Source of the DNA: Escherichia phage SP22
Direction: 5' to 3' (one strand)
Length of the DNA stretch: 64,000 nucleotides
Sequence record: LC519489.1
Shown here: in pieces, positions 2,383 through 8,722 of the stretch
Numbering within the stretch: the stretch's first letter is position 1
Layout of the letters: each line of letters opens with the position of its first letter
Made by a program: the position numbers and the translations under genes
Notes under the pieces: model-generated
Databases searched by the model: none
Told to the model about the DNA's origin: nothing
The model's input: the letters and a program-made list of their open reading frames with translations, nothing else

Positions 2383-2459
2383 CTCTGTTTAGCTCAGCTT
2401 GGTAGAGCGTTCCGTTTGGGGCGGTAAGGCCGGAGGTTCAAGTCCTCCAACAGAGACCA
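2383..2459 (+). tRNA. tRNA-Pro(TGG)
   Basis: Acceptor ctctgtt/aacagag, D-arm AGCTCAGCTTGGTAGAGC, anticodon loop TTTGGGG, T-loop TTCAAGT, CCA encoded. Confidence 0.7.
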
Positions 2460-2466
2460 AATTAAT

Positions 2467-2544
2467 GTTCCAGTAGACAAAATGGTAAAGTCACCACTCT
2501 TTCAAAGTGGATATTTGAGGGTTCAAATCCCTTCTGGAACGCCA
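2467..2544 (+). tRNA. tRNA-Glu(TTC)
   Basis: Acceptor gttccag/ctggaac, anticodon stem ccact/agtgg, loop CTTTCAA, T-loop TTCAAAT, CCA encoded. Confidence 0.7.
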
Positions 2545-2635
2545 GTTTTGACAGAAGACCAATTACAGCAAACTTAATCTTATTCATCTGAAGGTAAATC
2601 GGACAAAGAAGAGATTTGGTTTGGTCATTAAGAAT

Positions 2636-2712
2636 TGCGGGTATAGAGAAAGGGCGTCTCACATGTCTCATTAGCATGGTATCGGCAGGTTCGACTCCTG
2701 CACCCGCCTCCA
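2636..2712 (+). tRNA. tRNA-Met(CAT) type, with U1-C72 mismatch or extra nucleotide before the D-stem
   Basis: Anticodon stem catgt/gcatg, loop CTCATTA, D-stem gaga/tctc, T-arm gcagg-TTCGACT-cctgc, CCA encoded; acceptor register ambiguous. Confidence 0.6.
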
Positions 2713-2789
2713 ATTTTGCAGAAGACCGTATTCAGCAACAAAATACTTTTTGCGGATAAAAGAAAAAACACGGTCTGGCAATGTATTAA

Positions 2790-2866
2790 GGTTAGGAAGC
2801 ACATAAGGTATGTGCGGTCGCCTGTTAAGCGAATGGCACAGGGTTCGAATCCCTGACTAACCGCCA
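2790..2866 (+). tRNA. tRNA-Asn(GTT)
   Basis: Acceptor ggttagg/actaacc, anticodon loop CTGTTAA, T-arm caggg-TTCGAAT-ccctg, CCA encoded. Confidence 0.7.
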
Positions 2867-2935
2867 AATTTAGGAGAGAAGCGATTGCTCACCGATTTGT
2901 AAGGTGCAAGTCCTTAGCCTGAATAGAAATTAAAT

Positions 2936-3023
2936 GTGTCGTTATCCCGTAGATGGTAGCGGTGGGGACTGTAAATCCCTTGTCATTGAGACTCGGTAGG
3001 TTCGACTCCTACACGGCACACCA
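2936..3023 (+). tRNA. tRNA-Tyr(GTA), type II (long variable arm)
   Basis: Acceptor gtgtcgt/acggcac, anticodon stem gggga/tccct, loop CTGTAAA, about 15-nt variable arm, T-loop TTCGACT, CCA encoded. Confidence 0.65.
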
Positions 3024-3029
3024 AATAAA

Positions 3030-3106
3030 GGTTATGTAGTTTAACTGGTTAAAATACTCCCCTGTCACGGGAGATGATGAGGGTTCAAATCCCTTCGTAA
3101 CCGCCA
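3030..3106 (+). tRNA. tRNA-Asp(GTC)
   Basis: Acceptor ggttatg/cgtaacc, D-stem gttt/aaat, anticodon stem ctccc/gggag, loop CTGTCAC, T-loop TTCAAAT, CCA encoded. Confidence 0.75.
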
Positions 3107-3318
3107 AATTATAATAAGTATTTCAAAATGATGTTTTGAGAGGGCTATTTAGCCCCTCCCTTAAAGAGTTCTTACGAGTATTCTTTAAAGGAGCAGAAGA
3201 CCAAATTCAGCAAGTACGTATGAAATTTTCAAGCCAATTTAATTTTGAAAAAATTTAAAACTTGGTCTGGCTCAACAAATTTACAGAAGACCGTTTACAG
3301 CAAACTTTAAACAATCTA

Positions 3319-3392
3319 TTTCTCCGGTAAAGAAAAGGCGAAGGTTCGATTCCTTCACTCGGCAGATGTCGAGTTGGTGTAATGGTAGCACT
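3319..3392 (+). tRNA. Circularly permuted tRNA-Thr(GGT)-like locus: 3' portion (anticodon arm, T-arm, acceptor 3' strand; 3319-3364) lies upstream of 5' portion (acceptor 5' strand, D-arm; 3368-3392)
   Basis: Anticodon arm tttct-CCGGTAA-agaaa, T-arm gaagg-TTCGATT-ccttc, 3' strand actcggc, linker, 5' strand gtcgagt (7/7 pairs incl. one G-U), D-arm gtgt-AATGGTA-gcac; no partner halves in the conventional order nearby. Confidence 0.35.
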
Positions 3393-3564
3393 TAAGATGA
3401 TAAACAACGGTCTGGTAATTATCTTTGTAGATAAGTTATTAAGCTTACCTGTGAGTATGCGACCACAAAGGGTGAAATGGTAAATTCTAGATTTAAACCC
3501 AACAATGCACATCGCTACAGACCTTAAGCAAGTCTGGGTAGCTTATCTACAAAGATAATTTAAT

Positions 3565-3640
3565 GGAAGTGTAGCAGAATGGTGATGCGGCAGACTTTTA
3601 ATCTGACAGGCGATGGGTTCGAATCCCTCCACTTCTACCA
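3565..3640 (+). tRNA. tRNA-Lys(TTT)
   Basis: Acceptor ggaagtg/cacttct, anticodon loop CTTTTAA, T-loop TTCGAAT, CCA encoded; T-stem has a bulge (gatggg/ccctc), shared with the Lys(CTT) paralogue. Confidence 0.65.
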
Positions 3641-3644
3641 ATAT

Positions 3645-3721
3645 GGTTCAGTCGCAGATAAGGTAATGCAGGGGTTTCATAAGCCCTATGAATGTGGGTT
3701 CGATTCCCATCTGAACCTCCA
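3645..3721 (+). tRNA. tRNA-Met(CAT) type (elongator Met or Ile2 not distinguishable)
   Basis: Acceptor ggttcag/ctgaacc, anticodon stem ggggt/gccct, loop TTCATAA, T-arm gtggg-TTCGATT-cccat, CCA encoded. Confidence 0.7.
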
Positions 3722-3722
3722 A

Positions 3723-3798
3723 GCTGGTATAGTTAAGAAGGTTATAACACTCCCCTGATAAGGGAACATCGGTGGTTCGATTCCACCTACCAGTACCA
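3723..3798 (+). tRNA. tRNA-Ile(GAT)
   Basis: Acceptor gctggta/taccagt, D-stem gtta/taac, anticodon loop CTGATAA, T-arm ggtgg-TTCGATT-ccacc, CCA encoded. Confidence 0.75.
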
Positions 3799-3813
3799 AT
3801 TTCAATAAAGTTG

Positions 3814-3842
3814 TTGACATTGAGATGTGACTACTTTATAGT
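3814..3842 (+). promoter_or_regulatory. Sigma70-like promoter TTGACA-N17-TATAGT inside the tRNA array
   Basis: Hexamers and spacing read directly; followed by about 290 nt with no tRNA or ORF. Confidence 0.5.
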
Positions 3843-4136
3843 AACTGAAAATGATTCAGCATATGTATAATTCAAACACCAATACATGAGCGTTAGACGT
3901 AACACAATGTGGGGAAATTTGTTGTACATATTCTGAATAGTTTTCGTTGCGTAGCGTCTATTTTGCAAATTTAAAATAAATGCAAACGACAATGTTTTTC
4001 TGGCAGTAGCTTGATAGGCTAAACACCAGTGAGGTCTTCCAATCCCTCATCAAAGAATTTGGCGTACTCGCCCACGGTATGATTAATAAGGTGGGCATCT
4101 TTAAGGGCTTTCTAAGAGAGTCTTTAAAGATAATTA

Positions 4137-4218
4137 CGGGGCGTATCTCAGCGGTCTTCTAAACCGCCGTTAACCGAGTAAGTGGAGTATGCGGGTTCGA
4201 GTCCTGCCGCCTCGACCA
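4137..4218 (+). tRNA. Atypical tRNA-like gene, anticodon TCT (Arg), no recognisable D-arm and a 23-nt extra region; possible pseudo-tRNA
   Basis: Acceptor cggggcg/cgcctcg, perfect hairpin gcggt-CTTCTAA-accgc, T-arm gcggg-TTCGAGT-cctgc, CCA encoded; only 7 nt between acceptor and anticodon stem. Confidence 0.35.
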
Positions 4219-4232
4219 ATTTTGGAGAAATC

Positions 4233-4580
4233 ATGAAAACTTGTATTAGGTGCAAACTTAGCAAGGATGAAAATGATTTCTACATGAAAGATGGTAAGAG
4301 AACTCATTCATACTGTAAAAAGTGTGTTAATGAGCAAACCATAGAAAGACAAAGAGCACTTAAACTTTCAGCTATTGAGTACAAAGGTGGGGTTTGTCAT
4401 GATTGTGGTAAAAGGTATCATCCAGCAGTGTATGACTTCCATCATTTGAATCCTTCAGAGAAAGATTTTAACATTGGTCATAGAAAAAGTCTGAAGTTCT
4501 CTCAAGAACTAAAAGATGAACTTGACAAATGTGTTTTGCTATGTTCAAATTGCCATAGGGTAAGACATGCAAAGTATTAG
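4233..4580 (+). CDS. HNH homing endonuclease
   Basis: HNH motifs (YDFHHLNPSEKDFNIGH ... LLCSNCHRVRH); start placed at ATG after GGAG; upstream extension in the ORF track overlaps the tRNA-like gene. Confidence 0.7.
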   Translation: MKTCIRCKLSKDENDFYMKDGKRTHSYCKKCVNEQTIERQRALKLSAIEYKGGVCHDCGKRYHPAVYDFHHLNPSEKDFNIGHRKSLKFSQELKDELDKCVLLCSNCHRVRHAKY

Positions 4581-4717
4581 TTAGCAGATTGCTTAGACGA
4601 CCTTATCGGGTCTCCGTGTAAGGAGGTGGTCTGTATCTCATGTTTTCCAGAACATGTAAATAATCTGAGAAGGGGCTTTACAGTGTTGCGAAAATACGGT
4701 AAGCTTCGAATTACAAT

Positions 4718-4800
4718 ATGGGACGATGTTAAGACTCTAAGGCATGAGCAACGGCCTCCAAAACCGTTTCAAAGGGGTTCAACTCCTCCGTCCCATGCCA
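4718..4800 (+). tRNA. tRNA-Trp(CCA)-like with a 7-nt insertion between acceptor and D-arm
   Basis: Acceptor atgggac/gtcccat (7/7), D-arm ctc-TAAGGCAT-gag, anticodon loop CTCCAAA, T-loop TTCAACT, CCA encoded; would complete the 20-amino-acid set. Confidence 0.45.
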
Positions 4801-4813
4801 AAGTCTTATTAGG

Positions 4814-4901
4814 GGTAGGTAGCGGCTAATGGCAGCCAAACAGTCTTGAAAACTGTTGCCACTGTAGAGATACGGTGAGGGTTCGACTCCTTTACTTACC
4901 G
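4814..4901 (+). tRNA. tRNA-Ser(TGA), type II
   Basis: Acceptor ggtaggt/acttacc, D-arm ggc-TAATGGCA-gcc, anticodon stem acagt/actgt, loop CTTGAAA, long variable arm, T-loop TTCGACT; CCA not encoded. Confidence 0.65.
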
Positions 4902-5057
4902 CCTAATAAGATTTATACCGTCCATGCTTGCTCGCATTTTCGGTTTATCCTCGTGTATTGGTTGTACACACTGATAAAGCACCTAGTAGGTGTCACGGAG
5001 AAGAGATAATATCAAGCTCTCCAAAGGTTCTAGTCACCGGATTAAACAAGACTATGC

Positions 5058-5079
5058 AAAGACCAAATTAGGTCTTTTT
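5058..5079 (+). terminator. Weak rho-independent terminator-like hairpin (AAAGACC/GGTCTTT + T-run)
   Basis: Inverted repeat and T-tract read directly; AT-rich stem. Confidence 0.3.
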
Positions 5080-5171
5080 AGAGGGCTTCTAAGGTTATTA
5101 CAGCTTGTTGTGGAACCTTGTTGCTTAGGTTCTTAGAAGTTCTCTAAAAAGATTTAATGGGAGATTGACAC

Positions 5172-5624
5172 ATGGCACGTAGCAGTTTGACTAAAGATAT
5201 TCTTGAACCTTTAGTAAAGGATTCAGTATCATTCAGAGAAGTACTTATTAAGCTTGGGAGAAAACCAGCAGGTGGTTCTCAGTCACATCTAAAGCGTGTT
5301 ATAGAGAAGTTTGAAATAGACACTTCTCATTTCCTCGGACAAAAGGCTGGTAAGGTTAAAACTGTACCAAAAAGAAAGCCTGAAGAAATACTAATTCTGC
5401 GTGAATCTGGTGAAAGAGCTAGGTCTTCACAACTAAGAAGAGCTTTAATAGCCTCTGGTGTCGAATACAAATGCTCTAAATGTGGTCAGTTACCGTATTG
5501 GTTGGGTAACCCTCTAACTCTTGATGTTGACCACATTAACGAGAACTGGTTAGATGATAGAAAAGAGAATCTTCGGTTCTTGTGTCCAAATTGCCACAGT
5601 CAATTCTCAAGACATTTGATTTAA
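5172..5624 (+). CDS. HNH homing endonuclease
   Basis: HNH motif LDVDHINENWLDDRKENLRFLCPNCH; GGGAG RBS upstream. Confidence 0.7.
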   Translation: MARSSLTKDILEPLVKDSVSFREVLIKLGRKPAGGSQSHLKRVIEKFEIDTSHFLGQKAGKVKTVPKRKPEEILILRESGERARSSQLRRALIASGVEYKCSKCGQLPYWLGNPLTLDVDHINENWLDDRKENLRFLCPNCHSQFSRHLI

Positions 5625-5625
5625 T

Positions 5626-5702
5626 GCACCTATAGCCCAACTGGTAGAGGCAGCAGACTTAGAATCTGCTCAGTGTGAGTTCGAATCTCTCTAGGTGTAC
5701 CA
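5626..5702 (+). tRNA. tRNA-Leu(TAG) by anticodon, type I length (short variable arm)
   Basis: Acceptor gcaccta/taggtgt, anticodon stem gcaga/tctgc, loop CTTAGAA, 5-nt variable region, T-loop TTCGAAT, CCA encoded. Confidence 0.6.
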
Positions 5703-5709
5703 AATTAAT

Positions 5710-5785
5710 GCAGGTGTAGCAAAATGGTTATGCGGCTGACTCTTAATCAGTAAGACGATGGGTTCAATTCCCTCCACCTGTACCA
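5710..5785 (+). tRNA. tRNA-Lys(CTT)
   Basis: Acceptor gcaggtg/cacctgt, anticodon stem ctga/tcag, loop CTCTTAA, T-loop TTCAATT, CCA encoded. Confidence 0.65.
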
Positions 5786-5791
5786 AACATT

Positions 5792-5867
5792 GGGGATGTA
5801 GTTTACATGGTTAAAACATAAGTTTTGCAAACTTAAGTACAGGGTTCAATTCCCTGCTTCTCCACCA
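5792..5867 (+). tRNA. tRNA-Ala(TGC)
   Basis: G3-U70 wobble pair present (Ala identity element), D-stem gttt/aaac, anticodon stem taagt/actta, loop TTTGCAA, T-arm caggg-TTCAATT-ccctg, CCA encoded. Confidence 0.75.
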
Positions 5868-5873
5868 ATTAGT

Positions 5874-5948
5874 GCATCCATAGTTTAAACGGGAAAATTA
5901 CAGTCTTCCAAACTGAGGTTGAGGGTTCGATTCCCTCTGGATGCTCCA
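5874..5948 (+). tRNA. tRNA-Gly(TCC)
   Basis: Acceptor gcatcca/tggatgc, anticodon loop CTTCCAA, T-arm gaggg-TTCGATT-ccctc, CCA encoded. Confidence 0.75.
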
Positions 5949-5962
5949 AATTAAGGTGTGAT

Positions 5963-6376
5963 ATGAAAATATGTAGTACTTGCAGAATACCAAAAGATGA
6001 AAGCTTATTCCATAAGAATAAGAACAAGAAAGATGGTCTTCAAAGTCAATGCAAAGACTGTGCAAGACTTCGTGATGCAAAGAGTTATCAAGCAAATGAT
6101 AAAAGGAAAGAGGCTATCAAAAGCACTCGTAACTTCAAGAGGGAGTATAATAAAACTCTAGCTAGAAGGTACAAAGCTTTATGCAAATGTCATATATGTG
6201 GTGAGAAAGAACCAGCTGCACTGGATTTACACCATACAGACCCTTCCCAGAAAGATTTGAATCCTGCATCACTTTATTCATACTCCACAAAAAGATTAAA
6301 AGATGAAATCAGAAAGTGTATCGTCTTGTGTGCTAACTGTCACAGAAAAGTACACGCTGGTATCATACAAGTTTAA
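5963..6376 (+). CDS. HNH homing endonuclease
   Basis: HNH motifs LDLHHTDPSQKDLNPA ... VLCANCHRKVH; Cys-rich N-terminus. Confidence 0.7.
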   Translation: MKICSTCRIPKDESLFHKNKNKKDGLQSQCKDCARLRDAKSYQANDKRKEAIKSTRNFKREYNKTLARRYKALCKCHICGEKEPAALDLHHTDPSQKDLNPASLYSYSTKRLKDEIRKCIVLCANCHRKVHAGIIQV

Positions 6377-6377
6377 T

Positions 6378-6454
6378 GCTGCTTTCGTATAATTGGCTAT
6401 TACACATCCCTTGTAAGGATGGAAATGCAGGTTCGAGTCCTGTGAGCAGCACCA
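6378..6454 (+). tRNA. tRNA-Thr(TGT)
   Basis: Acceptor gctgctt/gagcagc, anticodon stem catcc/ggatg, loop CTTGTAA, T-arm gcagg-TTCGAGT-cctgt, CCA encoded. Confidence 0.75.
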
Positions 6455-6550
6455 ATTTAGAGGTCAAGTGAAAGACCGCTTTGAGTCAACTGAAGACCGT
6501 AACAAATCCCACGGAGTTGAGTTAGCGGCACAACTTCAGACCTCTTTCAT

Positions 6551-6625
6551 ACTCGCTTAGTTTATATGGTAAAACATCACCCTTACAAGATGAAGAAAAA
6601 GGTTCAAGTCCTTTAGTGAGTACCA
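6551..6625 (+). tRNA. tRNA-Val(TAC)
   Basis: Acceptor actcgct/agtgagt, D-arm gttt-ATATGGTA-aaac, anticodon loop CTTACAA, T-arm aaagg-TTCAAGT-ccttt, CCA encoded. Confidence 0.7.
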
Positions 6626-6626
6626 T

Positions 6627-6704
6627 GTTCCAGTATCCCAATTGGCAGAGGATGCAAGCTCAAACCTTGTACTAGTGACGGTTCGAATCCGTCTTGGAAC
6701 ACCA
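6627..6704 (+). tRNA. tRNA-Leu(CAA) by anticodon, short variable arm
   Basis: Acceptor gttccag/ttggaac, anticodon stem gcaag/cttgt, loop CTCAAAC, 6-nt variable region, T-arm gacgg-TTCGAAT-ccgtc, CCA encoded. Confidence 0.6.
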
Positions 6705-6709
6705 ATTTT

Positions 6710-6785
6710 GCAGGATTAGTTCAAATGGATAGAGCAACAGTCTACGAAGCTGTTAATAGGGGTTCGAATCCCTTATCCTGCGCCA
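6710..6785 (+). tRNA. tRNA-Arg(ACG)
   Basis: Acceptor gcaggat/atcctgc, D-arm gttc-AAATGGATA-gagc, anticodon loop CTACGAA, T-loop TTCGAAT, CCA encoded. Confidence 0.75.
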
Positions 6786-6804
6786 ATTTAAAGAGGCTAT
6801 TTAG

Positions 6805-7362
6805 ATGAGATATTTGAAGTATGCTTCATGGATTTTCTTAGCTTTGTTAGAACCATTTGCAGCAATCTTAGCAGTTATCTTAGCACCTTTCGTAGTCCCA
6901 TTCTACAGTGAGAAGAAAGGACACTTACCTTTCGGCTTCAGATGGATGGAGACATATGACAACCCAATTGATGGTGATAAAGGGCATGTCGAACGATGGG
7001 CTAAGATTAGAAAGATTGGCAAGCTTGGTGTCTATATGCAGAGAGTCGGTTGGCTCTGGAGAAACAAAGCTTATAACTTCTCTTACCATGTGTTAGGAAG
7101 AGATGTAAAAGATGTTACTAAGTGGAAAGGCAATATCAACGTAAGTTCTAACCCTGAAGATAATCAGACAGGTTATCTCCTAATGTGGAACAGCAATGCT
7201 TGGGGATTATTCGCTTTTATCCCATCAATTAAAGTCTTTGGTAAACAATTTTACTGGAGAATTTATATTGGGTGGAAGCTAAAAAGTGTTGTCCCAGAAG
7301 AAAGAGCATTCTCAAGGGAAAGAGTTATGTTGGCATTCTTTATTCATCCACTAAGAAAGTAA
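6805..7362 (+). CDS. Hypothetical membrane protein (N-terminal hydrophobic segment, Trp-rich)
   Basis: ORF track; AGAGG RBS upstream; no motif recognised. Confidence 0.5.
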   Translation: MRYLKYASWIFLALLEPFAAILAVILAPFVVPFYSEKKGHLPFGFRWMETYDNPIDGDKGHVERWAKIRKIGKLGVYMQRVGWLWRNKAYNFSYHVLGRDVKDVTKWKGNINVSSNPEDNQTGYLLMWNSNAWGLFAFIPSIKVFGKQFYWRIYIGWKLKSVVPEERAFSRERVMLAFFIHPLRK

Positions 7363-7370
7363 AGATTTAA

Positions 7371-7446
7371 AGGGGATTAGTTTACAAGGTTAAAACCTCG
7401 GTCTTTGAAATCGAAGAAGTTGGTTCAATTCCAACATCCCCCGCCA
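7371..7446 (+). tRNA. tRNA-Gln(TTG)
   Basis: Acceptor aggggat/atccccc with unpaired A1-C72 (weak 1-72 pair is typical of tRNA-Gln), anticodon loop CTTTGAA, T-arm gttgg-TTCAATT-ccaac, CCA encoded. Confidence 0.7.
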
Positions 7447-7448
7447 AT

Positions 7449-7527
7449 GCTCCATTACTCCAATTGGCAGAGAGGCCAGACTTAAAATCTGTGTTATGTA
7501 TCGGTTCGAATCCGATATGGAGTACCA
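7449..7527 (+). tRNA. tRNA-Leu(TAA) by anticodon, short variable arm
   Basis: Acceptor gctccat/atggagt, anticodon stem caga/tctg, loop CTTAAAA, about 8-nt variable region, T-arm atcgg-TTCGAAT-ccgat, CCA encoded. Confidence 0.6.
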
Positions 7528-7532
7528 AATTT

Positions 7533-7608
7533 AGCGGTATAGCATAACTGGCAATGCAGCAGTCTCTGAAGCTGTCTTATTAAGGTTCAAATCCTTATGC
7601 CGCTGCCA
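7533..7608 (+). tRNA. tRNA-Gln(CTG)
   Basis: Acceptor agcggta/tgccgct (A1-U72), anticodon loop CTCTGAA, T-arm taagg-TTCAAAT-cctta, CCA encoded. Confidence 0.7.
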
Positions 7609-7639
7609 CTTCTAAGGGTTCTTACGAGAGTCCTTAAAT

Positions 7640-7715
7640 GTGGCCTTATCATAAATGGTAATGACCCATGCTGTGAACATGGTCTATACGGGTTCAAATC
7701 CCGTAGGTCACCCCA
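7640..7715 (+). tRNA. tRNA-His(GTG)
   Basis: Acceptor gtggcct/aggtcac, D-arm tcat-AAATGGTA-atga, anticodon stem ccatg/catgg, loop CTGTGAA, T-arm acggg-TTCAAAT-cccgt, CCA encoded; no G at -1. Confidence 0.75.
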
Positions 7716-7720
7716 ATTTA

Positions 7721-7797
7721 TAGTCCAAGTAGCTTATATGGTTAAAGCGCGTGTCTGAAAAACATGAGAAGAGGGTTCAAATCCCACTGGACTACCA
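7721..7797 (+). tRNA. tRNA-Phe(GAA)
   Basis: Acceptor tagtcca/tggacta, D-arm gctt-ATATGGTTA-aagc, anticodon stem cgtgt/acatg, loop CTGAAAA, T-loop TTCAAAT; two extra nt at the acceptor/D junction. Confidence 0.65.
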
Positions 7798-7813
7798 ATT
7801 TCAAAGGTGCTTA

Positions 7814-8548
7814 ATGAAAGAGATGACAGAACAAGGTAAGGAGATTTTTAATCTCTTAAAAACCGGTAAAGGGTTTTCTAATCCCCTTATTACTGGTGCA
7901 GCAGTTCTCGGTGGAACCGTAGCTGCCTCTACATCACTTGTAAGCTCTATTAGCTCTGTAACAGACCCTACAATAAAAGATAAGCTTGTTGCTGCTGGAC
8001 TTACAACAGTCCTGCTTAACAGCTTTACAACGAGTCTGACAAGCACTACATCAACTACCAAAACACTGACAGATTACGGTCAAAAATCTATTGATGAGTT
8101 TTCATCACGTATGCAGGTAGCAAAAGGCTATTCTAATGTTATGGGTGCAGCAGGAGAGCAGGTTGGTTGTACACCATTTAGTGGTATTATGGGTGTTGCT
8201 ACAGAGTATGGTCAAAAAGCTATTGACACGATTAACAGTGCACTAGATGGTGTTAATGATGTATTAAGTGACTTACAAGATGCTATTGACAAAGGTCTTG
8301 ATACTATTTCTGATTTAGCTAACCAAGCTGTTAGTAAGATTAATGAAGGTATTTCGAAGATTACAGCTTATGCAGATGAAGTTGTGCAGATGATTGAAGA
8401 AGAAGCTGCTCTTATTGCAGAGTACCTTAAAACGAATATCAATGGGTTCTTAGCAGGTATCTTACCAGACTGGTTTGATGATGCTTGTAAAACTGGTGTA
8501 ATTGATACTATTGCAACACCAGAAATGAAGAACGCATTACAGAAATAA
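7814..8548 (+). CDS. Hypothetical protein (Ser/Thr-rich N-terminal region)
   Basis: ORF track entry 7751-8548 overlaps tRNA-Phe; start moved to ATG after AAGGTG. Confidence 0.5.
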   Translation: MKEMTEQGKEIFNLLKTGKGFSNPLITGAAVLGGTVAASTSLVSSISSVTDPTIKDKLVAAGLTTVLLNSFTTSLTSTTSTTKTLTDYGQKSIDEFSSRMQVAKGYSNVMGAAGEQVGCTPFSGIMGVATEYGQKAIDTINSALDGVNDVLSDLQDAIDKGLDTISDLANQAVSKINEGISKITAYADEVVQMIEEEAALIAEYLKTNINGFLAGILPDWFDDACKTGVIDTIATPEMKNALQK

Positions 8549-8549
8549 T

Positions 8550-8642
8550 GGAAGATTAACCCTAAAAGGTAAGGGAGCAGTTTGCTAAACTGCCAGTAGC
8601 TGAGAAATCGGTGTACCAGTTCAAGTCTGGTATCTTCCTCCA
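8550..8642 (+). tRNA. tRNA-Ser(GCT), type II
   Basis: Acceptor ggaagat/atcttcc, D-stem ccc/ggg, anticodon stem gcagt/actgc, loop TTGCTAA, long variable arm, T-arm accag-TTCAAGT-ctggt, CCA encoded. Confidence 0.7.
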
Positions 8643-8646
8643 ATTT

Positions 8647-8722
8647 GAATCCGTGACAGAAATGGTTATGTGCCTGTCTGCAAAACAGGTTTATAAGGGT
8701 TCGAGTCCCTTCGGATTCTCCA
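8647..8722 (+). tRNA. tRNA-Cys(GCA)
   Basis: Acceptor gaatccg/cggattc, anticodon stem cctgt/acagg, loop CTGCAAA, T-arm aaggg-TTCGAGT-ccctt, CCA encoded. Confidence 0.75.

Follow-up and report, generated by a model that had tools for sequence, protein, structure and literature searches.

Two structurally aberrant transfer RNA (tRNA) genes lie on either side of an HNH endonuclease gene in the tRNA array of Escherichia phage SP22. We analyzed a stretch of 64,000 nucleotides (nt) from this phage (sequence record LC519489.1; hereafter the window). It derives from a Felix O1-like myovirus (Felixounavirus), and its positions 3800–5200 show 93–98% identity with Felix O1, KEP2, mio, and many others. 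All window features described here are on the + strand. The array (2383–8722) lies 3′ of a gene for a DUF2828/DUF7788 protein (697–2112) and 5′ of the large terminase gene. It holds 25 canonical tRNAs identified with ARAGORN and Rfam, together with the two aberrant genes: element A (4137–4218), an apparent tRNA-Arg(UCU) of 82 nt including an encoded CCA, and element B (4718–4800), an apparent tRNA-Trp(CCA) of 83 nt that also encodes its CCA. Among the 25 ARAGORN tRNAs of the window there is no second tRNA-Trp and no other tRNA with a UCU anticodon, in agreement with an initial annotation, made from the sequence alone, in which B was the only tRNA-Trp of the array. The same annotation described both loci as structurally aberrant tRNA genes, and conservation and compensatory changes show that they are genuine.

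Element A has, in place of the D-arm, a short helix enclosing its anticodon arm. The acceptor stem (5′ strand 4137–4143) forms 7 base pairs (bp) with 4208–4214, one of them a G3:U70 wobble. It is followed by a linker, U8-A9-U10 (4144–4146), and by the 5′ strand of the enclosing helix (helix 2; CUC plus A, 4147–4150, partner 4175–4178), leaving only 7 nt (UAUCUCA, 4144–4150) between acceptor and anticodon stems at the position of a D-arm. The anticodon arm (4151–4167) has a 5-bp stem and a 7-nt loop, CUUCUAA, with U33, a purine at position 37, and the anticodon UCU (4158–4160), which has the C35 and U36 of an arginine anticodon (C35 with U36 or G36). Between the anticodon arm and the T-arm lies a 23-nt segment (4168–4190). 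It consists of an asymmetric internal loop, CGUUAACC (4168–4175), leading from the anticodon stem to helix 2; the 3′ strand of helix 2 (GAG, 4176–4178), which covaries with 4147–4149; and a 12-nt D-loop-like connector, UAAGUGGAGUAU (4179–4190), in which motif comparison equates GG 4184–4185 and A4186 with G18, G19, and A20. The T-arm (GCGGG-UUCGAGU-CCUGC, 4191–4207), A73 (4215), and the encoded CCA (4216–4218) complete the gene. The initial annotation had already recognized the acceptor, UCU anticodon and T arms, the 7 nt in place of the D-arm, and the 23-nt segment.

Element A retains several features of a tRNA, including a 7-bp acceptor stem, a discriminator, and a T-arm with a GTTCRA loop, and both stems covary. 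In a 731-nt search, the Rfam tRNA model (RF00005; gathering score 29) gives it 31.7 bits, in an alignment that deletes the D-arm (15 model positions are lost) and accommodates a 20-nt insertion. There is no D hairpin at positions 10–25, and for this reason A falls outside the cloverleaf definition. The initial annotation had allowed that canonical tRNAs might be found at shifted coordinates, as would follow from a misfolding by hand; neither ARAGORN nor the Rfam covariance model found any.

Relatives of element A form a large family with compensatory changes in every helix. A first scan used a pattern derived from the extra segment of A alone, with the anticodon free and CGUUAA of the internal loop fixed, and yielded 82 viral contigs with 50 distinct full-length members. 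A second scan, in which anticodon and internal-loop length were both free, matched more than 120 contigs at the least. A sequence-agnostic structural descriptor applied to 1.69 Mb of phage DNA identified 76 distinct members without an ARAGORN call and gave no matches on the reversed sequence used as a control. The family as a whole comprises more than 75 distinct sequences from at least seven phage lineages. Covariance model R1 scores members at 74–102 bits and element A at 97.6, compared with at most 34 for canonical tRNAs.

Across the 50-member alignment, 98.6% of cells are paired and double changes occur at 18/20 pairs; no shuffle out of 500 attains such values, and pairing in slid controls is only 34–47%. 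Compensatory changes are found at 7/7 acceptor pairs and 5/5 anticodon-stem pairs. The UAU linker is invariant in all 50 aligned members and is also present in 75/81 matches of a descriptor that did not demand it. Helix 2 is paired as CNN/NNG in 50/50 members through seven combinations (CUC/GAG 31, CGC/GCG 7, CAG/CUG 4, CAC/GUG 3, CAU/AUG 2, CGG/CCG 2, CUU/AAG 1). In an unbiased mutual-information scan, columns 12–41 and 13–40 rank among the true pairs, their mutual information equaling the full column entropy, and the fourth position of helix 2 (columns 14–39) covaries as well (A.C, C.A, A-U, C-G, U.G). Two other pairings were considered and rejected. A single-sequence fold places a stem-loop within the 23-nt segment (CCG/UGG), but by covariation the 5′ linker pairs with the first GAG, which gives no support to a local hairpin. 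The 5′ linker could also pair with the second GAG (in GGAGUAU), but that motif is invariant, and it is the first GNG that changes in concert with the linker. A purine discriminator is present in 49/50 members, and CCA is encoded in 37/50.

Sequence motifs and anticodons associate the family with arginine. The connector sequence UAANUGGAGUAU of A carries the D-loop signature of arginine tRNAs, as comparison with AAAUGGAUA, the D-loop of a canonical tRNA-Arg(ACG) in the window (6710–6785), shows. UAANUGGA in this connector is common to all Arg members, and in every one of them an A follows the GG of the relocated D-loop-like motif. Anticodons in the first set were UCU in 48 members and UCG and CCU in one each; among the matches listed from the second scan they were UCU (54), CCU (6), and ACG (4), and the internal loops in that list varied from 3 to 10 nt, with subtypes CAUUAAYC, UGAAA, AGCC, and UCA. 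Arginine anticodons (UCU, CCU, ACG, UCG) were likewise present in 75/76 members found with the structural descriptor. The remaining member has the isoleucine anticodon GAU (phage contig L262, 4483–4558, − strand). Like the family, it has a UAU linker and a UGAAA loop; it forms helix 2 as ACC/GGU and has the D-loop-like motif AGCCGGU, with GGU, and hence a U after GG, where Arg members have GGA; the same contig also carries a rewired tRNA-Arg(CCU). Two rewired Arg isoacceptors occur together on each of three contigs (UCG and UCU on L049, CCU and UCU on L059, ACG and UCU on L092), and contig L103 carries a variant whose internal loop is shortened, along with a truncated copy without a T-arm (1458–1540). 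Non-Arg matches of a loose regular expression (GAA, CTT, TTA) were discarded as chance matches in coding DNA that lack a T-arm, and the non-tRNA matches of the second scan likewise fell by chance in coding DNA.

The family is essentially phage-only and spans unrelated phages. By BLAST, sequences 83–100% identical to element A occur in Felixounavirus, Kolesnikvirus, Sugarlandvirus, Asteriusvirus, Mydovirus, and Justusliebigvirus. Those at 83–90% include genes in the tRNA arrays of the unrelated Klebsiella phage Sugarland (Demerecviridae), PBECO4 (Asteriusvirus, 348 kb), KpS8 (Mydovirus), phi92 and PHB05 (Justusliebigvirus), and Erwinia phage Ep030 (Kolesnikvirus); a more distant but still recognizable relative is present in Streptomyces phage BoomerJR (Karimacvirus). 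Members of the family are located within tRNA arrays (median, eight tRNAs per locus). A bacterial origin was considered and rejected: in 596 Gb of bacterial and archaeal genomes searched by pattern and model, we found only four true loci, all on contigs of metagenome-assembled genomes and at least two of them tRNA-rich, and these are probably mis-binned phage. In GenBank records, element A is either unannotated or labeled "tRNA" or "tRNA-OTHER"; most deposited genomes omit the gene or use "tRNA-OTHER". Too few tRNAs are consequently counted for Felix O1-like, phi92-like, Mydovirus, Sugarland-like, Asteriusvirus, and some Streptomyces phages.

Element B deviates from the cloverleaf in a different way, through an expanded connector between acceptor stem and D-arm. 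It comprises a 7-bp acceptor stem, a D-arm (4734–4749), an anticodon arm with the anticodon CCA (4758–4760), a 5-nt variable loop, a T-arm, G73, and CCA. Its connector, GAUGUUAAG (4725–4733), has 9 nt in place of the 2 nt (positions 8–9) of a canonical tRNA; it is invariant in Felixounavirus, Mooglevirus, and Pectobacterium phage Arno18, in the last of which the connector has two extra nucleotides. The acceptor stem and extra connector nucleotides are as the initial annotation described them. Its description of the arms needs a small correction, since A10.C25, C31.A39, and A49.C65 are mismatched; the C31.A39 mismatch (or C.C), which closes the anticodon loop, is conserved in the variant alignment. 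Pairing among 10 variants is 99.5%, and compensatory changes occur at 8/20 pairs, distributed over acceptor, D, anticodon, and T stems; those in the D, anticodon, and T stems extend across three Ounavirinae groups. ARAGORN calls B a tRNA-Trp once 6 connector nucleotides are deleted, and calls the intact sequence in mitochondrial mode.

In E. coli, the identity elements for tryptophanyl-tRNA synthetase (TrpRS) are the CCA anticodon, G73, and A1-U72. All three are present in B, and pair 1–72 is A-U, G.U, or G-C among the variants. The gene is restricted to the Ounavirinae (Felixounavirus, Mooglevirus, and Arno18). Phage VpaE1_ev78 (contig L002, 3335–3824) has a canonical 71-nt tRNA-Trp and an open reading frame (ORF) of 134 amino acids with weak HNH matches in place of B, which identifies the slot of B as a tRNA-Trp slot. 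Judged from its sequence, B is a lineage-restricted tRNA-Trp variant and the tRNA-Trp of this phage. An 8/4 fold, in which the acceptor stem has 8 bp and the T-stem 4 bp, is possible: G4725 could pair with C4789, turning the A49.C65 mismatch into a G8-C65 pair, which can form in 10/10 variants without ever varying, and the minimum-free-energy fold has an 8-bp acceptor. Other candidate partners for the connector (the D-loop CAU, the variable loop, and the 5′ leader) were rejected, as none is conserved in Arno18.

The three HNH genes of the array appear from sequence comparison to be free-standing mobile cassettes that landed in spacers beside tRNA genes. Gene 1 (4233–4580; PHROG 2255, HNH, E = 1e-39) lies in a free-standing cassette of ~354 bp (roughly 4222–4575) next to element A. 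Gene 2 (5172–5624; PHROG 10822, E = 4.5e-66) ends 1 nt before tRNA-Leu(UAG). Gene 3 (5963–6376; PHROGs HNH, E = 4.8e-41), a paralogue of gene 1 with 36% identity, lies between tRNA-Gly and tRNA-Thr. All three match PHROGs HNH families, and their Pfam HNH scores are marginal (16.7–21 bits against a cut-off of 21.4). The initial annotation had rightly placed these ORFs between tRNAs; its statement that the 3′ end of A abuts the first of them is accurate as to adjacency but not exactly, with the HNH ATG 14 nt after the CCA of A. In Salmonella phage Mushroom, which lacks gene 1, ...CCAATT is joined straight to AGTTAGCAG..., and BLAST against this genome shows gene 1 to be a clean insertion of ~354 bp just 3′ of the CCA of A. 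Gene 1 is thus present or absent between close relatives with precise boundaries, as a mobile cassette would be.

Contrary to what the initial annotation had implied, HNH insertion did not produce the aberrant structures. Element A in the HNH-free Mushroom is 100% identical to that of the window, the architecture of A occurs without an adjacent HNH gene in the unrelated phages PBECO4, KpS8, and phi92, and in Mooglevirus Sf16 the same HNH gene adjoins a canonical tRNA-Arg(UCU). Nor did a common HNH gene serve as the vehicle that spread element A, as the HNH gene beside the Sugarland copy is unrelated to that of the window. The suggestion that endonucleases remodeled the array nonetheless survives in part, for replacement of tRNA alleles. 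Felix O1 (contig L001, 1945–2499, compared with window 3645–3798) has an extra HNH gene (ORF44) between tRNA-Met and a divergent tRNA-Ile allele, and homology between Felix O1 and the window stops exactly at the end of tRNA-Met, which suggests that HNH gene and tRNA move together as a cassette. HNH cassettes coincide with allele swaps here and in VpaE1_ev78, and it follows that endonucleases reshuffle the array but did not create the odd structures.

Taken together, the locus probably comprises a phage arginine tRNA with a rewired core, the tRNA-Trp of the phage, and HNH cassettes that are not the source of either structure. On this reading, element A would be a member of a widespread and apparently undescribed phage family of rewired arginine tRNAs. 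It keeps the parts contacted in translation: the 7-bp acceptor stem, purine discriminator, CCA, canonical T-arm, and 5-bp/7-nt anticodon arm with U33. Helix 2 would stack on the anticodon stem and lie where the D-stem normally does, its strands connected in the reverse sense. The strand leaving it bears the D-loop-like sequence AANUGGA(G)UA and leads into the T-stem, and its GG would contact the T-loop as G18 and G19 do, keeping the L-shape. A20 and C35 are the main identity elements for bacterial (E. coli) arginyl-tRNA synthetase (ArgRS). The A after GG could stand in for A20, allowing the host ArgRS to charge element A, and the charged tRNA would read AGA. The rewired core would in this way preserve the L-shape and all surfaces used by ArgRS, EF-Tu, RNase P, and the ribosome. 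One hypothesis is that the rewiring is kept as an escape from host factors that read the canonical core.

Codon usage and genomic position are consistent with a role in decoding AGA. E. coli and Salmonella rarely use AGA. It is the most used arginine codon in the long ORFs of the window (40% of Arg codons, 17 per thousand), and its median share of Arg codons in 68 family-bearing loci is 0.355. In Shigella phage Sf16, of the sister genus Mooglevirus, the slot of element A is occupied by a canonical 76-nt tRNA-Arg(UCU), flanked by an upstream hairpin and a downstream HNH gene homologous to those of the window. The 2010 genome paper on Felix O1 noted that a tRNA for Arg[AGA] was expected but missing (PMC3185647); by sequence, element A accounts for this "missing" tRNA.

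Several observations weigh against this reading or narrow it. Everything beyond the secondary structures of A and B is inferred. ARAGORN, in both standard and mitochondrial modes, makes no call for element A, and B is called neither by ARAGORN in standard mode nor by the Rfam tRNA model, its sole Rfam match being tRNA-Sec at 23 bits. The single-sequence fold of A is no better than that of shuffled sequences (z = 0.04), and a 3–4 bp helix closing a multiloop is thermodynamically weak. RNAalifold applied to the family predicts the three arms and omits helix 2, so support for this short helix is comparative rather than thermodynamic. Members were gathered with patterns that fix parts of the sequence instead of by an exhaustive covariance-model scan, and both the diversity of the family and its range of anticodons may therefore be under-sampled. 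The Ile member indicates that the fold is not strictly Arg-only, and a canonical tRNA-Arg(UCU) is co-present in 4/84 family-bearing loci, loci in which AGA would have a reader besides the rewired form. For B, G8-C65 and the connector are invariant in 10 closely related variants, and the 8/4 fold is accordingly putative.

The family could instead consist of non-decoding tRNA mimics, serving as decoys or sponges for some host nuclease or other enzyme directed at tRNA-Arg, or as ligands of the phage Ro-like protein encoded upstream. We regard this as unlikely, though not negligible. A non-canonical core may not fit the ribosome or EF-Tu, and the array adjoins both a Ro-like gene and tRNA mimics that resemble Y RNAs. 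The host tRNA-Arg(UCU) also has the same anticodon loop, CUUCUAA, a match that a decoy would require. Yet four Arg anticodons occur on an unchanged scaffold and some phages carry two isoacceptors, a pattern that fits decoding better than it fits a decoy with a single target. Mimicry also leaves the retention of acceptor stem, purine discriminator, CCA, and T-arm to be explained, as well as the canonical tRNA-Arg(UCU) in the same slot in Mooglevirus, and members are found in Asteriusvirus, Justusliebigvirus, Sugarlandvirus, and Karimacvirus arrays, where no link to a Ro-like gene has been established. A rewired, decoding tRNA-Arg remains the preferred interpretation of A.

Element B, for its part, might be a specialized decoder, for example with enhanced reading of UGA as Trp, rather than a plain tRNA-Trp; by analogy with known mutants this is conceivable but doubtful. 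Changes at position 9 and in the D-stem (A9C and G24A, the latter the Hirsh change), and unpinned anticodon-stem pairs, let tRNA-Trp(CCA) read UGA (PMC13092985). B alters the same region, with its grossly changed 8–9 connector, its A10.C25 mismatch, and the conserved C31.A39 mismatch, and on this basis a read-through role can be envisaged. The proposal rests on analogy, however, and UGA ends 14/56 long ORFs of the window, giving no sign of avoidance or reassignment, and no recoding site was identified. A plain tRNA-Trp of unusual structure thus remains our reading of B.

It is very improbable that A is a miniature transfer-messenger RNA (tmRNA)-like or alanine-accepting RNA charged by alanyl-tRNA synthetase through G3:U70. 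The window copy does have G3:U70 and A73, the D-stem is absent from its normal place as in the tRNA-like domain of tmRNA, and the Rfam tmRNA model aligns its ends to 4137–4218 at 22 bits. Indeed, in a 7.5-kb Rfam search the A locus is listed solely as a tmRNA match, of 22.1 bits, from the same Rfam clan as the tRNA model. However, this score is far under the gathering score of 47, ARAGORN reports no tmRNA, G3:U70 is present in only 7/50 members, and A has a full anticodon arm with Arg anticodons in the family and no mRNA-like region. With a length of only 82 nt, a sub-threshold score, and an unconserved G3:U70, both the tmRNA (RF00023) and the Ala identity were rejected.

We give still less credence to the view that A, B, or both are decaying pseudogenes, tRNA remnants damaged by indels and possibly by HNH endonuclease activity. 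Both genes are rejected by standard tRNA finders, they flank an HNH gene, and one family copy is visibly truncated (that on L103). Covariation already contradicts this view, with compensatory substitutions in every helix of A and in the stems of B; moreover, the linkers do not vary, Mushroom has an identical A without the HNH gene, and the family extends over at least seven phage lineages. Sequencing or assembly errors, which the initial annotation had named as a possible refutation, are practically out of the question, since identical or near-identical copies in hundreds of independently sequenced phage genomes and metagenomic contigs show that neither oddity is an assembly error or a chance event.

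The sequence around the two genes contains further conserved elements. A perfect 16-bp hairpin (4097–4131; fold −17.6 kcal/mol, z = −4.4) lies directly 5′ of element A and is a possible processing or termination signal. The best sigma-70-like promoter match 5′ of A, TTGACA-17-TATAGT (3814–3842), agrees with the consensus at 11/12 positions and, as a consensus match, is the strongest of the region; it is followed by ~250 nt of conserved non-coding sequence up to the hairpin and element A. The only RNA-family matches in 3814–4096 are sub-threshold Rfam matches to tmRNA and permuted tmRNA (16–22 bits); such matches, at 3847–4135, have low scores and no ARAGORN support. Spacers of the array hold other long, near-perfect hairpins, at 3156–3193 (z = −3.5) and at 5063–5160, where a stem of ~30 bp precedes HNH gene 2 (z = −6.2). 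Along with the hairpin at 4097–4131, these could be RNase III, processing, or terminator signals. The 137-nt spacer from HNH gene 1 to element B (4581–4717) has a moderately stable fold (z = −2.4). Its sequence is highly conserved between Felixounavirus and Mooglevirus, apart from 23 nt inserted in Sf16.

The array also contains RNAs that resemble Y RNAs. A circularly permuted tRNA-like RNA at 3283–3413 has an outer stem, GACCGUU/AACGGUC, enclosing an anticodon-arm-like hairpin, a T-arm (GAAGG-UUCGAUU-CCUUC), a 7-bp acceptor stem closed by an AGAU tetraloop, and a D-arm (GUGU-AAUGGUA-GCAC). The tRNA-like domain of the bacterial Y RNA YrlA has the same architecture (PMC4201824). The closed acceptor stem shows compensatory changes in Sf16, and Rfam reports no family at threshold for this RNA. 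Four spacer modules (repeat family D10; ~2549–2630, 2716–2781, 3190–3270, and 3280–3415) open with RCAGAAGACCNN and close with N′N′GGUCUGG, and two variable base pairs covary among them (AA/UU, GU/AC). Their NCAGAAG resembles the strand motif GNCGAAN0-1G of bacterial Y RNAs, and by sequence they may represent several Y-RNA-like modules interleaved with the tRNAs. The upstream DUF2828/DUF7788 protein (PHROG 850, "RNA-binding protein") is 33–35% identical to mycobacteriophage homologues labeled "Ro-like RNA binding protein", and has relatives in Vibrio, Listeria, Staphylococcus, and Campylobacter phages; no sequence match to a solved structure was found. It is likely to be a partner of the downstream Y-RNA-like modules.

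According to a 2024 paper, the bacterial tRNAs known so far are all canonical cloverleaves, and a 2020 review of non-canonical tRNAs names no phage case (PMC7609411). In a full-text literature search of incomplete coverage, we found no description of either architecture in phages. A broader proposal, for which we see the case as evenly balanced, is that phages evolved and spread a second, non-cloverleaf architecture for working tRNAs that operates on ordinary bacterial ArgRS, EF-Tu, and ribosomes. Its D-stem would be re-threaded around the anticodon arm and its D-loop, with A20, moved 3′ of that arm, mostly in Arg tRNAs and in at least one Ile tRNA. It may evade tRNA-targeting defense nucleases, modification enzymes, or other host factors by which the canonical D-arm or core is recognized, and would stand beside a second, independent deviation, B, which may have an 8/4 fold and may read UGA. 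Should the RNAs prove to be charged and used, they would be a natural and abundant counter-example to the cloverleaf-only view on unmodified bacterial machinery. It would then become possible to test how A20 is read by ArgRS outside a D-loop, what the ribosome, EF-Tu, RNase P, and modification enzymes need of a tRNA core, and whether the fold is suited as a compact scaffold for orthogonal tRNA engineering. A further question is whether rewiring of the core serves to counter tRNA-directed host immunity.

Each component of the locus has partial parallels in known systems. Free-standing HNH homing endonuclease genes are known in the tRNA regions of T5- and T4-like phages. The HNH genes of the window, putative homing endonuclease genes, resemble them as small ORFs with their own ribosome-binding sites in tRNA spacers, present or absent between close relatives. 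Compared with canonical tRNA-Arg(UCU) (E. coli argU, Sf16), element A is alike in acceptor stem, purine-73, CCA, T-arm, CUUCUAA anticodon arm, and AANUGGA D-loop-type motif with a candidate A20 equivalent, and it shares a genomic slot with the Sf16 gene, to which it is otherwise unrelated in sequence. It differs in lacking a D hairpin (10–25) and an ordinary variable loop, in having a D-stem-like helix that encloses the anticodon arm, and in carrying its D-loop-like sequence 3′ of that arm. The tRNA-like domain of tmRNA shares with A an acceptor stem and T-arm, a single-stranded D-loop analogue, a helix in the direction of the anticodon stem, and, in the window copy, G3:U70. In contrast to tmRNA, A is 82 nt long with a true anticodon loop, no mRNA-like segment or pseudoknots, and no conservation of G3:U70.

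Unusual tRNAs have been reported from phage tRNA clusters before, as (8/4) and (9/3) allo-tRNAs and 8/4 tRNA-Ser and tRNA-His (Mukai et al., PMC5389517), and B can be drawn as 8/4. The reported 8/4 and 9/3 species are Ser, His, Cys, or Sec tRNAs, mostly with long variable arms, those 8/4 species from phages are Ser and His only, and none is Trp or Arg (PMC5389517). B, with a 5-nt variable loop and a CCA anticodon, has neither the long variable arm nor the Ser/His/Sec-type identity of allo-tRNAs, and none of these has a 9-nt acceptor–D connector as in B or a relocated D-loop as in A. Finally, the D-armless mitochondrial tRNA-Ser of metazoans (AGY/AGN, anticodon GCU or UCU) resembles A in the absence of a conventional D-arm, a three-way junction, and an anticodon that reads AGN codons (PMC4013460, PMC9427863, PMC7609411), with no sequence relationship to the phage family. 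These mitochondrial forms are eroded, are without the canonical T-loop/D-loop elbow, and need adapted synthetases and EF-Tu, whereas the phage family keeps a canonical T-arm and GG motif, has Arg anticodons, and must use ordinary bacterial factors.

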